Shown here one piece after another: positions 4,030 through 63,160 of a stretch of DNA of 64,000 nucleotides. The translations under genes and the position numbers were made by a program. The DNA is taken from assembly GCA_951406725.2 (NCBI GenBank), contig OX597817.1:121148001-121212000 (forward strand), in the 5' to 3' direction. This stretch comes from Octopus vulgaris. Its lineage: Eukaryota. The stretch's first letter is position 1. Each line of letters begins with the position of its first letter. The notes beneath the pieces were generated by a model, which had not been told where the DNA came from, did not search any database, and saw only the letters and a list, made by a program, of their open reading frames with translations.

Positions 4030-5930
4030 TTCTCATAGAAGTGTACAAGTTTGGTGGTAGTCATCTTGTAAGAAAGCTGTGCAAATTGATGATTTTGATC
4101 TGGGAAACTGGATCTGTTCAAATATGCATCTATAATGCACTTCCACAAAAACAAAGGGTGTATGTGATAAACACAGCAGAATAAGTTGCTTGTGCATAGT
4201 TGGAAAAATTATTGTGAGTGTGATTCTTAACCACATCAATAAGCATCTAAATAAATTGCATGTATTCTGAATCCCAATGTGAATTTCAGGCTGGGAAAAG
4301 CATGGCTGATATGATTTTTGCTCTTAGGCAAGTCCAAGAAAGAGCACTTGAGCAAAATACTGACTTGTACATGGCCTTTGTCAACTTGACCAAGGCATTT
4401 GATACAGAGAATTGAGAGGTGCTTTGGAAGATTTTGCCAAAAGTTGGTCTTCCTGATAAAATAATAAGAGTAACAGTATCTTTGTACAAAGGAACAGTGA
4501 TGTCTAAAAGTCAATGTTCAGAGGTATTTTCTGTTTCCCCTGGTACTAAGCAATGCTGTCTTTTAGCTTACTCTTTTACTTGTTTCAGTCATGTGACTGT
4601 GGCCATGCTGAAGCACCGCCTTTAGTCGAACAAATCGACCCCAGGACTTATTCTCTGTAAGCCCAGTACTTATTCTATCGGTCTCTTTTGTCGAACCACT
4701 AAGTTATGGGGACGTAAACACACCAGCATTGGTTGTCAAGCGATGTTGGGCGGGGACACACACACACATACATATATATACATATGTACGATGGGCTTCT
4801 TTCAGTTTCCGTCTACTAAATCTACTCACAAGGCTTTGGTGGCCCGAGACCATAGTAGAAGACACTTCCCCAAGGTGCCACACAGTGGGACTGAACCCAG
4901 AACCATGTGGTTGGCAAGCAAGCTACTTACCACACAGCAACTCCTGTGCCTATACTTTTTGCCACATTCTTTTCAATGATACTTCAACATGCTTTCAAGG
5001 ATTACCATGAAGGCGTAAAATTTCAGTTTTGTACAGATGGAGGTCAACTAAACCTAAATGGGCAAAACTATGGATCAAAGAATAAAAAAATGCTAGGGCA
5101 GAGATTCTATGCAATTTTGGATTATGCAACATCTGGATTATGAGACTGACACACTACCTACTCTGCTACCACAGCATCCGGTTTACTGATGATTGTACTT
5201 TGATTTCTCATACATTTGAATGAATTCAGGAAATAGTTGATAGGAAGCTTGTGCATTTGGACTGAAGGTTTATTCTAACCAAAGCCTGGGACAGAACATA
5301 CTCAAGATTTATTTGTGATGATTGACAATAAGCCACTCAAATGGATCAGGTCATTTAAATATCTTGGAAGTACACTAAACTGTAAGAGGACTCTTGATAA
5401 TAAAATCAATGTTAGAATATCTAAGGCTATAAATGCTTTTGGAAAACCATTCCATTGTTTGTGAGATGAACATGATGTCAGTTTGAAAAATAAAATAAGT
5501 GTATACAAATCTTATATTTTGAGCACACTTTTGTATGAAGTAAAAGCATGCACTCCCTACTACAGACATACAAAGAAACTTGGAACCTTTCACATACACT
5601 GTCTGTGTAATATCTGCAGCATAAATTGGTAGGACAAGATATGAAATGTCAAAAGTTTAGAAAAACGTGATATCTCCAGGATTGAAAGAATGCTGTAGAG
5701 AATTTAGTGCAGATGGGTAGGACATGTTTGAATCCAAGATGATTGCATTCCAAGAATATTTTAGTGTGGCTGACAAGTAGAGGGATTCCATGGTAAAAGA
5801 AAACCCCCTCCTAAGGTAAGCTGAAACAAACAAAAATTCCTACAGCTTAATTTAAAATGTTGGGTAAGCTATTGCTTAGATTGATCTAACTGGTGTAAAA
5901 TGCTTCATGATGCATCTAAACAATTTGATT
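4030..5930 (+). pseudogene. Decayed RTE-clade LINE reverse transcriptase, split by a SINE
   Basis: Translated motifs MIFALRQVQERALEQNTDLYMAFVNLTKAFD (~4311-4403), GTKQCCLLA|PILFATFFSMIL across the SINE, FKYLGSTL (~5354), RWVGHV (~5711); many stops and frameshifts. Confidence 0.85.
4568..4951 (-). mobile_element. tRNA-derived SINE family 'A' (internal CA/TA microsatellite) inserted in the RTE RT
   Basis: Minus-strand head with A-box-like ttgctgtgtggtaag and B-box-like ggttcagtccc, tail gactgaaacaagtaaaagag; interrupts the RT between CLLA and PILF. Confidence 0.9.
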
Positions 5931-14697: not shown

Positions 14698-14779
14698 TCT
14701 TTTGGAGATATGCTGTACTTGAGAACACCAGGCAAGCCAAGTGAGATGGTAACTGTGGCCAATGCCAGTGCCACATAAC

Positions 14780-15066
14780 CCCAGGACTTATTCTTTGTAA
14801 GCCTAGTGCTTATTCTATCAGTCTCTCTTGCCAAACCGCTAGGTAACAGGGATGTAAACACACCAGCATCAGTTGTCAAGCGATGTTTGGGGGACAAACA
14901 CAGCCACACAAACATATGCATACGTCATATATATATATATATATATATATACGACGGGCTTCTTTCAGCTTCTGTCTACCAAATCCACTCACAAGGTTTT
15001 AGAAGGCTATAGAAGAAGACACTTGCCCAAGGTGCCACACAATGGGATTAAACCCGGAACCATGTG
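14780..15066 (-). mobile_element. SINE family A, partial
   Basis: ccccaggacttattctttgtaagcc...gacacttgcccaaggtgcc. Confidence 0.85.
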
Positions 15067-16355: not shown

Positions 16356-16739
16356 TAGCATTCTACCAGTTAAAAATGATGCTGCTTTTTCAGCCTCCTT
16401 TCAGCAATTCATAAAATTTCTTTACAGCTCTTTTGTCGGTTTTTCTATTTCATTTTGTCCTTTTACCATTAGATGCATCATACTTTCCTACACACTCTGC
16501 GATTAGTGCCACTCTCTATTTTCTCTTTTCTCTTTTACTTGACACAGTCATTTGACTGCAGCCATGCTAGAGCACCACCTTTAATCAATCAACTTCACCT
16601 CAGGACTTATTCTTTGTAAGCCCAGTACTTATTCTATTGGTCTCTTTTGCTGAACCGTTAAGTAACGGGGACATAAACACACCAGCATCGGTTGTCAAGC
16701 AATGCTTGGGGGACAAACACAGACACACAAACACACACA

Positions 16740-16781
<42 letters not shown>

Positions 16782-16821
16782 GATAAATCTCAGAGCGAGT
16801 TATAAACAGTAGCGGTAACAC

Positions 16822-17128
16822 ATCGTGATGCACATATGCCATTTGAATATGGCTAACCCATAAAAAGTATATGTATTTGTGAAGGGATCTGACTTCTCGT
16901 CGACAACCATGATTGTCACACGCTGATGAAAGGTAAACACCTTGAACCTCGGGTACGTGTGTATCATGTGTTGAAGACGGGTAGGATGACTCCCCTTCAC
17001 AAATACTGACAGGACACAGATAGTGTGTCTATGGCCAGCTGGAGGAGATATCTTCCTGGGGCTACAAACTACAGTAGCATCCACCCTTATGGGTTAGCCA
17101 TATTCTAATGGCATATGTGCATCACGAT
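16822..17128. mobile_element. Fold-back element with 42-bp inverted repeats (1 mismatch)
   Basis: 16822-16863 atcgtgatgcacatatgccatttgaatatggctaacccataa vs 17087-17128. Confidence 0.9.
16917..16961 (+). ncRNA. Type I hammerhead ribozyme motif (A15.1 appears changed to C)
   Basis: cacacg-CTGATGA-aaggt(aaac)acctt-GAAc-ctcgg-GTA-cgtgtg: perfect 6-bp helix I, 5-bp helix II, short near-palindromic helix III. Confidence 0.75.
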
Positions 17129-17372
17129 ATATATATATATATATATACATACATATATACGATGGGCTTCTTTGAGTCTCCGTCTACCAAATCCACTCTC
17201 AAGGCTTTGGTCTGCCCGAGGCTATAGTAGAAGACACTTGCCCAAGGTGCCACACAGTGGGACTGAACCCGGAACTATGTGGTTGGTAAACAAGATACTT
17301 ACCACACAGCCACTCCTGCGCTACCTCACATTCTTCATTAGCTTTCCTCTTTCTCTCTCTCCTTCTCTCTAT

Positions 17373-25251: not shown

Positions 25252-25640
25252 TTCTTTTATTCTTTTACTTGTTTCAGTCATTTGACTGCAGCCATACTGG
25301 AGCACTGCCTTGAAGGGATTTAATTGAACAAATCGATCCTAGGACATTTCTTTAGTCTAGTACTTATTCTGTCAGTCTCCTTTGCTGAACCACAAGGTTA
25401 CAAGGATGTAAACATACCAACACTGGTTGTCAAGTGGTGATGGCAGCACAAACACACACACACACATACACACATGATGGTCTTCTTTCAGTTTCTGTCT
25501 ACCAAGTCCACTCACTAGGCTTTGGTTGGCATGAGGCTATACTAGAAGACACTTGCCCAAGATGCCATTCAGTGAGACTGAAACTGGAAACATGTGGTTG
25601 AGAAGCAAGCTTCTTACCACACAGCCACGCTTGCACCCAA
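25252..25640 (-). mobile_element. SINE family A, full length
   Basis: Head and tail motifs both present. Confidence 0.88.
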
Positions 25641-31801: not shown

Positions 31802-31976
31802 TCTTTAACTCTTTTACATGTTTCAGTCGAGCAATTCGACCCCAGGACTTATTCTTCGGAAGCGTAGTACTTATTATATCAGTCTTTTTTGCCAAACCGC
31901 TAAGTTATGGGGACATAAACACACCAGCATCGGTGGTCAAGCAATGTTGGGGGGACAAACACAGACACTCAAACAT

Positions 31977-32009
<33 letters not shown>

Positions 32010-32569
32010 GGTGAGAAAGTTGGTGTGTGAAAGCACGTGGTTGGATGTATAAAAAATAGAAAAGAGTGAAAAAAACTACAGAAGGCTTGTTTTATAAGGT
32101 TAAAGAATATATTTAAATCGTTATGTTAGAAAAATGTTAGAAAATTTTGTGTATAGTAACATAATTTTTGGAAAAAATAACCGGTTTCGTGTAAACTTTT
32201 CAAATTTCTCAAATTTCTTTACCTACATCATGTCATGTCTTCGTTATGAAGTCTAAAGAAGAGTTCCAGGCAGGGGGAGGTAATCAGGGATTTCTTCCGG
32301 TATAGGGGAGACAATCGCTTTATATTTTTTTCCTTTTTTTTCAATGAGATGAGTTTCTCTGCATGGAACTCTTCTTTACACTTTATAACGAAGACATGAC
32401 ACGATGTAGGTAAAGAAATTTGAGAAATTTGAAAAGTTTACACGAAACCGGTTATTTCTCCAAAAACTATGTTACTATACACAAAATTTTTCTAACATAA
32501 CAACTTAAATATATTCTTTAACCTTATAAAACAAGCCTTCTGTATTTTTTTTTTCACTTTTTCTATTTT

Positions 32570-32612
<43 letters not shown>

Positions 32613-32900
32613 TACGACTGGCTTCTTTCAGTTTCCATCTACCAAATCCACTCACAAGGCTTTGGTTGGCCCGAGGCTATAGTAGAAGACACTTGCCCAA
32701 GGTGCCCTGCAGGGGGAATGAACCCAGAACCTTGTAGTTAGTAAGCGAGCTACTTACCACACAGCCACTCCTGCACCTATATATATATATATATATATAT
32801 ACCACACAGCCACTCCTGCACCTATATATATATATATATATATATACCACACAGCCACTCCTGCACCTATATATATATACCACACAGCCACTCCTGTGCA
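31801..32900 (-). mobile_element. SINE family A interrupted by a ~565-bp palindromic insert; head tandemly amplified
   Basis: Tail half 31801-32009, head half ~32610-32780, then three extra copies of the 24-bp head end. Confidence 0.9.
32045..32575. repeat. Large inverted repeat, ~220-230-bp arms, ~85-bp spacer
   Basis: 32045-32273 is the near reverse complement of 32359-32575; each arm carries cgaaaccggtta. Confidence 0.92.
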
Positions 32901-40731: not shown

Positions 40732-40790
40732 CAGTCTTTACTGATGAGGCAATGGAAATTGTAGAAACTGGCATCAGTATAAGGAATTCT
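40732..40790 (+). ncRNA. Hammerhead-like motif, copy 1 of a direct pair
   Basis: CTGATGA(40741)-g-gcaat(ggaa)attgt-a-GAAA-ctggc-ATC. Confidence 0.5.
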
Positions 40791-61350: not shown

Positions 61351-61466
61351 CATCATCATTGTTCGACCGTGGTCAAGACAATGGAATTTACCATGCTACG
61401 CCAGACTTCACGGTCCATCATGGCATTACGGAGGTCCTGTTGCTGGATGCCTGTATCCCTGGAGAT
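61351..61466 (-). mobile_element. 5'-truncated RTE-like 3' end with (TGA)n tail and 10-bp TSD
   Basis: Minus frame ISRDTGIQQQDLRNAMMDREVWRSMVNSIVLTTVEQ*; TSD tacaagctat at 61341-61350 and 61467-61476. Confidence 0.85.
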
Positions 61467-62490
61467 TACAAGCTATACATATTCATAGAAAGTTTTGCTG
61501 AGGTCTTGGCAGACATCTACAACAGCTATCAGTAGAATGGAAAATTTTTCAGCTCTGTGAGTAAAAAAAAAATGGTAATACTGCTAAGGAAAAATGCAAA
61601 CAAAATATATAGTGTTAATAATTTCAGGCCCATAACTCTGTTGACTGCAAAGTTTAAGATTTAGGCCAATGTGCTTGAGAAGACATTGGCATTTGCCATT
61701 GGTAGTCTGTTCTGTAAAGATCTATATGATTCCTGGCAGATCAATCGACGAAAACTTCTATTTTATGCAATAGCACAGAGATAGGGTAGGAACAACCCTC
61801 CTATTGTTAGAGTTCTGATTAATTTGGATTACCTGAAAGCTTTTGACAGGGATAACTATCAGAACTTAGCAACTGTGTTCAGTGTAGCTGGTTGGGACCC
61901 TGTATTCAGAGACTGTAACATTGTCATATACAGTAGCAACTGCACATGCTCACTTTAAGTGACCACCTATCGGAACCATTTTGAATCTCATACTCAATCT
62001 ATCAAGTATATCCTTTTTATTAATTTTTTTATGGTTTTTACACTAGAATTACTCTTGAAGTTGTTAAGGGGCATCCAGCTTTAATTAGGAGACAGAGAAG
62101 TTGTATTGGCTAATAAATGTTATCCCCATAATGATATCAGACACCAGGAAAATTGAGATAGCTGGTACCATACTGAAGGAATATGAGATGGAATTAAGAA
62201 GACACTTAACCAAGACTAATAAGTGTGTTTATATCTCAAACTTGCAGTAGAAGAAAATGATATTTCCAGAAATGAACATAGACTTTCACACTGTTATACA
62301 TACAAGTGAGTAGTGATAATAAAAATTGTTATAATGTAGCCAATAGCATTAGTTTTGCCAGTGTTGCACACCAAAGGGGGCATTGGATATGAGCCTGTTC
62401 CAGAGAAGAGATATGGGAGAGATATATGAAAAATGTCTGTGCCTCCTCGCCTTCTGATTACACTGAGGAACTTTCAAGGAGCATTGACAT

Positions 62491-63160
62491 AAGGTGGTGA
62501 GCTGTCAGAATCATTATGCCAGGCAAAATGCTTAATGGCATTTCATTGTTTTTTATGTTCTGAGTTCAAATTCTGCCAAGGTTGATTTTACCTTTCATCC
62601 TTTTAGGGTTGATGAAATAACTACCATTTGAGCACTGGGTTAATAGAACTTAGTTTCAGGTTTTGTGCCTATTCTTATTCTTTTACTTGTTTCAGTCATT
62701 TGACTGTGGTCATGATGGAGCACTGCCTTTAGTCAAGCAAATTGACTTATTCTTTGTAAGCGTAGTTCTATCGGTCGCTTTTGCTGAACCGCTAAGTTAT
62801 GGGGATGCAAACACACCAGCATCGGTTGTCATGTGATGTTGAGGGCACAAACACAGACACACACATATATATATGTACATATATATGACGGGTTTCTTTC
62901 AGTTTCCATCTACCAAATCCACTCACAAGGCTATAGTAGAAGACACTTCTGAACCCAGAACCATGTGGTTGGTAAGCAAGCTACTTACCACACAGCCACT
63001 CCTGCACCTGTGAATTATGTTCAAATTCTGCCAAGGTGATCTTTGCATTTTATCTTTTAGGGTTTAGCAAAATGTGTATTGGTTAAGTACTGGAGTTATT
63101 ATAATCAACTATTTACTTCCTCTAGATATCTGGATTTGTGCTTGTCTTAGAAATCTTTAT
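62491..63160. mobile_element. SINE B (+), SINE A (-), SINE B fragment
   Basis: B at 62491-62665; A at 62672-63010; B at ~63015-63160. Confidence 0.8.

Follow-up and report, generated by a model that had tools for sequence, protein, structure and literature searches.

The 64,000-nt stretch of Octopus vulgaris DNA analyzed here (hereafter, the window) carries at 16779..17128 an insertion which, with a probability of about 0.82, represents a truncated and probably dead two-armed copy of a 353-nt hammerhead retrozyme, likely PLE-pasted into a (TA)n tract. Positions are those of the window; u numbers refer to the retrozyme unit (u1-u353), u1 being the first base 3' of the predicted GUA cleavage site. 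The following features were delineated:

16545..17321, minus strand: host interspersed repeat, SINE-like, cut at its internal microsatellite (approximate boundaries)
16743..16778, no strand: left portion of the (TA)n target tract; the right portion is 17129-17146
16779..17128, no strand: whole two-armed retrozyme insertion, with (TA)n on either side
16779..16863, minus strand: inverted 5'-truncated arm, u132-u216, stopping at fixed site B
16779..16821, minus strand: 43-nt "tail", u174-u216, confined to the inverted arm, a PLE-type asymmetry (tail concept: PMC8557442, PMC11167929)
16822..16863, minus strand: duplicated u132-u173, forming the 5' strand of a 42-bp outer stem, an insertion by-product
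16862..17128, plus strand: sense arm u260-u353-u1-u173, spanning the predicted cleavage site and stopping at fixed site A
16897..16916, plus strand: unoccupied target site (u295-u314) of an L1/Tx1-type LINE, containing the putative transcription start (~u297)
16917..16961, plus strand: type I hammerhead, a candidate by motif and covariation
16947, plus strand: private core substitution A15.1C

The inverted arm comprises 85 nt and the sense arm 267 nt; u217-u259 are absent, and the copy itself is shorter than one unit. The flanks of the host repeat are contiguous without an insert in other copies within the window (e.g., 4586-4949 and 14778-15066), which bears out the nesting in a SINE described by the initial annotation of this DNA. 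The host repeat has a B-box-like motif on the minus strand (17269-17260) and an A-box-like TGGCTGTGTGG (17312-17302, picked out by eye). Further copies of it lie at 25275-25634, 31839-32774, 51202-50870, 55961-55589 and 62693-63005, and the one at 31839-32774 has ~630 bp additional at its microsatellite.

The initial annotation also took the 42-bp outer stem (16822-16863/17087-17128) for a part of the retrozyme RNA. This inverted repeat is present, with 1 mismatch, but its length varies from locus to locus (the inverted part ranges from ~20 to >700 nt), and it is therefore an insertion by-product. Judging from the sequence of the arms, it is a locus-specific overlap of the short arm on the long arm and lies outside the RNA monomer. 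The 361-nt region folds with -160.6 kcal/mol (z = -13.0), a value equaled by 0/100 shuffles, and the 267-nt sense arm folded by itself gave z = -6.7. The hammerhead and inner rod described previously stand, and the ~310-nt size gives way to a monomer of 353 nt. We regard it as very improbable that this rod, with the 42-bp stem closing it, is a functional RNA, either hairpin or circle, at this locus: the fold is indeed very stable and read-through transcription would make such a rod, yet the stem is locus-specific, the single ribozyme of the copy is broken and its ATCAG motif (a putative promoter) is missing, the paralogues contradict this reading, and a contig of run X2 reaching 16863 goes on as the normal unit and not over the arm junction of the window copy.

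The inner stems read earlier were recovered in place, as were helix I CACACG/CGTGTG (16917-16922/16956-16961), CTGATGA (CUGAUGA in RNA, 16923-16929), GAAC (16944-16947) and GTA (16953-16955), with cleavage predicted after 16955; helix II occupies 16930-16943, and the short helix III has a near-palindromic loop. Four natural monomers folded as circles gave z values from -6.4 to -11.2, and the hammerhead was present in these folds. The gctac/gtagc side hairpin proposed earlier was absent from these circular folds, its strand pairing with u182-188 instead in 4/4 monomers.

Searches of the source 2.8-Gb assembly revealed a dispersed family. BLAST with 16781-17128 gave at least 157 matches (40 scored of 2523 candidates), and an exact 33-nt core pattern had 128 genome matches, with 0 for the control. 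Head-to-tail 353-nt units, within the 150-450-bp size range of retrozymes, occur at L009, L024, L025, L086 and L100. Arrays are short, reaching at most ~2.3 units among 83 insertions, and 5/83 insertions have an arm bearing two predicted cleavage sites. In the family, each unit carries a single type I hammerhead whose core is intact, in contrast to the window copy with its A15.1C. The RT + GIY-YIG ORF of an autonomous PLE is lacking in the unit: its six-frame translation gives short frames only, and no long ORF follows its 45-codon ATG frame in 150 scored matches, where the longest was 186 aa. This frame, which runs through both fixed ends (u153-u287; partly at window 17108-17128 and 16779-16842), is probably due to chance. 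By its testable sequence features, the family is a dispersed non-coding non-LTR retrozyme. The class named by the initial annotation is upheld by the multi-copy family, the tandem multimers, the GAAA intact in paralogues and the compensatory changes in covarying helices (see below); BLAST and covariation, two of the checks it had proposed, yielded neither a single copy nor a family without GAAA. Older subfamilies of the retrozyme (70-80% identity) were found beside young insertions, sharing their TA tracts, at L002:1896-2212 and L134:4691-4792.

In an alignment of 15 representatives, hand-chosen over the subfamilies, 93.7% of the cells were paired and double changes were found at 9/19 pairs, counts of a kind that kinship inflates; 0/500 shuffles matched this result, and slid controls reached 23-54%. 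Helix III was palindromic or nearly so (CTCGGG, CTCGAG, CTGCAG, CCGCGG, CCCGGG), and a short palindromic helix III has been linked to dimeric activity in metazoan hammerheads (PMC4209133). The conservation of the core is inflated by the choice of most loci via the exact core pattern. A relaxed core pattern missed 37/125 distinct core regions and the closing pair of helix II was open in 7/15 representatives, so many relatives may not cut. In Xenopus, 8/9 predicted retrozyme dimers were reported to be uncleaved in vitro (bioRxiv 10.64898/2026.07.22.740005). None of the 137 Rfam matches in the window segment 14000-20000 (E ≤ 5) was to a hammerhead model, and 0 hammerheads reached the gathering score in 3 loci; hence, the ribozyme call depends on motif and covariation. 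The miRNA matches from Rfam were rejected as TA-repeat noise.

The window copy has 3 private changes in 352 nt (16947, 16982, 17106). The first of these places C at position 15.1, which occurs in 0/36 cores from loci found without the core filter, and changes at 15.1/16.1 of the hammerhead lead to a loss of at least 10-fold (PMC3088659). In the contigs of four runs, which prove presence and not absence, neither C16947 (among those listed over this position) nor the arm junction of the window copy was found. The copy has a single predicted cleavage site, no ATCAG motif and no second ribozyme; where the active-retrozyme criterion of Li et al. calls for two consecutive complete hammerheads, it has one broken ribozyme. 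The lone cleavage site makes the release of a unit-length circle impossible and, together with the few private changes and the absence of ATCAG, argues that the copy is young and probably dead. It is a truncated, probably dead insertion, by itself an ordinary one. The suspicion raised initially that the GAAC copy may be inactive has been strengthened by the private A15.1C, the single ribozyme and the missing ATCAG.

The ends of the family members point to the mode of insertion. From the 100 loci mapped, 17 duplicates were removed (among them L007, which is nearly identical to its neighbour L006), so that 83 insertions remained, 47 of them two-armed and 36 of other shapes. The 3' ends of the segments fell at site A (u164-179, mostly u173; 65 ends) or site B (u209-225, mostly u216-219; 63 ends) in 128 of 138 cases; the spacing of the two sites is 43-46 nt, and (AT)4 came after 110/128 of these ends. 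Both fixed ends recur in ~85%-identical subfamilies. Head-to-head junctions combined A with B in 41/48 cases and A+A or B+B in 0/48, the other 7 having an off-site end (at least 2 of them being LINE interruptions). The inner breakpoints were scattered all around the unit and did not cluster at u1 or u295.

Inverted ends and a TA target would also be expected of a MITE or DNA transposon with terminal inverted repeats, bearing a hammerhead by chance. This explanation is refuted and has only the slightest probability, as the units stand head-to-tail, the ribozyme helices covary, and the inverted part is variable and asymmetric at its ends, in place of fixed symmetric terminal inverted repeats. 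The family shows PLE-type signs, namely a 5' arm that is inverted and 5'-truncated, and a one-sided tail between the fixed ends. Insertions of PLEs have been described as an inverted 5'-truncated copy plus a one-sided tail of 30-40 bp (PMC8557442), the same pattern is known for the Penelopes of Adineta (PMC3846280), and in vitro the counterpart of the PLE tail is a pair of internal RT start sites, nicking and extension taking place on both strands (PMC11167929). We consider the two-armed shape likely to be the mark of insertion by a Penelope-type enzyme.

According to the mechanism that we propose, rare long copies would be transcribed from an internal snRNA-type promoter. Two hammerheads, probably dimerised via the palindromic helix III, would excise the monomer, and a host ligase would circularise it. 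A PLE protein would nick both strands of (TA)n, with RT primed from site A on one of them and from site B on the other, and the two cDNAs would be linked at an inner position that varies, which leaves the arms head-to-head. In the window copy, a 42-nt overlap of the short arm with the long arm would make the outer stem.

The predicted cleavage site is spanned by 96/123 arms; 33 arms are longer than one unit and 2 start at most 5 nt from the site. Because the arms cross the cleavage site and few begin there, the template was not a cut linear monomer; as far as the arms indicate, it is a circle or an uncut multimer, and the crossing arms fit both equally. Within a single insertion, the arms disagree at 125/7106 shared sites (1.8%), compared with a mean of 4.0% to other loci (39 insertions), which is consistent with the arms of one insertion deriving from a single source; in L024, L027 and L075 the two arms were no more alike than background. 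We consider it possible, though the less probable course, that no circle is formed and that a linear multimer left uncut, or else a pLTR-like piece of a PLE, serves as template, the hammerhead being slow or protein-assisted. In vitro, uncut RNA was the dominant PLE substrate and ribozyme cleavage was not required for insertion (PMC11167929); the short arrays noted above would accord with this, and contigs of runs presumed to be RNA, none of which is recorded as such, cover the unit with u353 joined to u1 in 4/4 runs, a join that fits tandem or circle, and DNA or RNA, equally well and is silent on strand and level. However, inner breakpoints occur round the whole unit, none of them piled at u1 or u295; 5' truncation would presumably shorten long arms unless an endless template restores them; the monomer folds as a closed circle, with a long stem pairing across the cleavage junction; and no long ORF continues the 45-codon frame in the 150 scored matches. 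In the proposed mechanism, the template would be an excised circle. At L025:1757, a contig of run X2 (presumed RNA) has a loose end with an A-run just past site A, which could reflect polyadenylation or a genomic A tract. A reading of the rare variants common to both arms (A>G 7/22, T>C 0) as RNA editing was set aside and is not established, given the whole spectrum of 34 versus 26.

A candidate helper is present in the same genome. A young PLE-type family (L185:3206-5902 and L134; dozens of copies at 99-100% identity), the one family examined in this respect, has an 899-aa frame, carries a hammerhead within the terminal repeat and stops in (TA)n at two fixed ends. These ends lie ~66 and ~220 nt past the cleavage site, giving a tail of ~155 nt versus 43-46 nt in the retrozyme; the distal end is comparable in position to site B, near which the family has a weak likeness to the unit (score 32 versus 24.5±2.8, reached by 2% of 300 shuffles). 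Neither Pfam nor the PDB gave a significant match to the 899-aa element, which is therefore labelled a PLE from its anatomy and from motifs picked out by eye, namely RWL, DKT (Hydra-like), YRDD and a C-terminal VY-x-YVG. Thus, PLE-type machinery appears to be present in the genome, and its role as a partner of the retrozyme is that of a candidate.

A foreign junction at u295 common to four loci represents the 3' end of a LINE of 5.24 kb, whose 1146-aa ORF2 has the domains APE-RT-zf-RVT and L1 ORF2 as its best solved match. A full-length copy with an open 1146-aa ORF2 (L133:1544-4981, minus strand) and a 20-bp duplication at u295 was found at L133 (G000:C11:53233800-53243600). A LINE-only query returned 30 loci, and the retrozyme followed at the homologous site after 27/30 LINE 3' ends, or 22/25 once five retrozyme-derived loci were removed. 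Of the remaining ends, that at L127 is followed by a distant hammerhead tandem repeat (CCGAUGA core, ATCAG at -60) and two by neither. The insertion point lies ~20 nt ahead of the ribozyme. A target duplication of ~14-20 bp accompanies 20/25 copies, often with common local variants, and is missing from 5/25. By its domains and its likeness to L1, the element is apparently an L1/Tx1-type LINE target-specific for the retrozyme, with a fixed, duplicated target that is empty in the window copy.

This association could be turned around, with the retrozyme as a passenger of the LINE, SINE-like or 3'-transduced and inserted by L1-style twin priming. The retrozyme after 27/30 LINE ends, the 5/25 copies without duplication, and the target copies differing in subfamily variants round the LINE at L143, L145, L150, L152 and L153 (for which recombination or 3'-flank carry-over is possible) may speak for it. 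Yet 20/25 LINE copies are flanked by the retrozyme on both sides, with a duplication, and local variants are common to both duplication copies at L131, L136, L139 and L148, from which it follows that the LINE inserted second. Moreover, the retrozyme ends in (TA)n, without poly(A) or a LINE tail. In L1 twin priming the second priming site is variable; both retrozyme priming sites are fixed. We consider the passenger role improbable and treat the LINE as the later arrival. At L146 and L078, a 5'-truncated LINE is fused to a retrozyme arm without duplication, and the composite may sometimes be copied whole.

A 14-nt pattern of the LINE end was useless as a count of LINEs (196 matches versus 235 for the control). 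Of the 20 loci drawn from this pattern, 8 lacked a LINE upstream, 4 belonged to a ~71%-identical sister family that forms tandem arrays and has a different target, and the other 8 were more closely related, the retrozyme following in 7 of these. The tandem sister LINE is represented by L209-L212 (e.g., G000:C5:29184009-29205128, period ~5277). At L234:2-1200, another sister LINE, with 83% identity, ends immediately before +1 of a U2 snRNA gene. Within the window, a LINE RT fragment (61458-61937) has 34% identity to ORF2 of the nested LINE.

The putative promoter was recognized by comparison with U2 genes. ATCAG stands at -57 to -61 in 11/12 of these genes, the twelfth having the 83%-identical sister LINE directly before U2 +1, and at -57 to -60 from u297 in 11/12 retrozyme rows over subfamilies, the exception being an inverted junction. 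The start at u297 was picked by analogy with U2, ATCAG has just five letters, and a PWM built from unaligned U2 upstream regions placed the expected site third in one of the segments scanned and below fourth in two others; for these reasons the snRNA-type promoter stays inferred. ATCAG precedes two predicted cleavage sites in 4/83 insertions (L009, L024, L025 and L086), which we regard as candidate source loci. A broader scheme, offered tentatively and at somewhat less than even odds, would have three tiers: a promoter-bearing hammerhead circle, its writing by a PLE into (TA)n from both strands at two fixed sites, and a Tx1-type LINE that would target the transcription start of the retrozyme to borrow its promoter, as the sister LINE abutting U2 +1 may suggest.

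The family resembles the metazoan non-LTR retrozymes (Cervera and de la Pena 2020, PMC7229834; Li, Clavereau and Pollet, bioRxiv 10.64898/2026.07.22.740005) in its non-coding tandem unit (150-450 bp; 353 here), one type I hammerhead per unit, GC below 50%, stable circular fold, dispersed monomers with short multimers, and proposed PLE dependence. In contrast to the published retrozymes, most copies here are two-armed, head-to-head, with two fixed ends in (TA)n; the words "inverted" and "microsatellite" do not occur in the available text of PMC7229834, and the bioRxiv study, in the portions available, argues for the PLE link via co-occurrence and pLTR homology, not via insertion anatomy. Expression and circles have been demonstrated for the published retrozymes, whereas the present family is known from sequence. 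With EN+ PLEs (Poseidon_Ac, PMC11167929; Adineta, PMC3846280; Naiad/Hydra/Neptune, PMC8557442) it has in common the inverted 5'-truncated arm, the one-sided tail, a microsatellite target and a hammerhead upstream of the RT start sites; it differs in having no ORF and a tail of 43-46 nt as opposed to the published 30-40 bp. Furthermore, no start-site difference between strands was seen in PMC11167929, whereas the two retrozyme arms always use different sites.

Like the target-specific LINEs of the Tx1 clade (Tx1L in Tx1D, Keno in U2, Tx1-Mar, Kibi/Koshi; PMC4494074), the nested LINE inserts at a fixed target that belongs to another repeat and is flanked by a long duplication, and its flanks surpass the >20% level that defines target specificity in that paper; its target, a hammerhead retrozyme, is different from theirs. 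The tree legend of PMC4494074 names "satellites" among Tx1 targets, which could reduce the novelty of this target. No published LINE with a hammerhead-retrozyme target was found in the literature searched, and neither were descriptions of the two-end footprint, LINE targeting or promoter for retrozymes; most subscription papers and Repbase were outside the scope of these searches. The available text of the octopus repeat annotation (PMC13282606) mentions neither hammerheads nor ribozymes.

The transcription and re-insertion of animal retrozymes have been called unresolved (bioRxiv 10.64898/2026.07.22.740005). The present family provides exact predictions, namely RT starts at u173 and u216-219, the candidate promoter motif and start, the four candidate source loci and the target of the LINE endonuclease, and an in vitro PLE assay for such predictions exists (PMC11167929). 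Elsewhere in the window, similar CTGATGA...GAAAC motifs occur at 40741 and 41103, 362 bp apart, and may represent a second hammerhead repeat.
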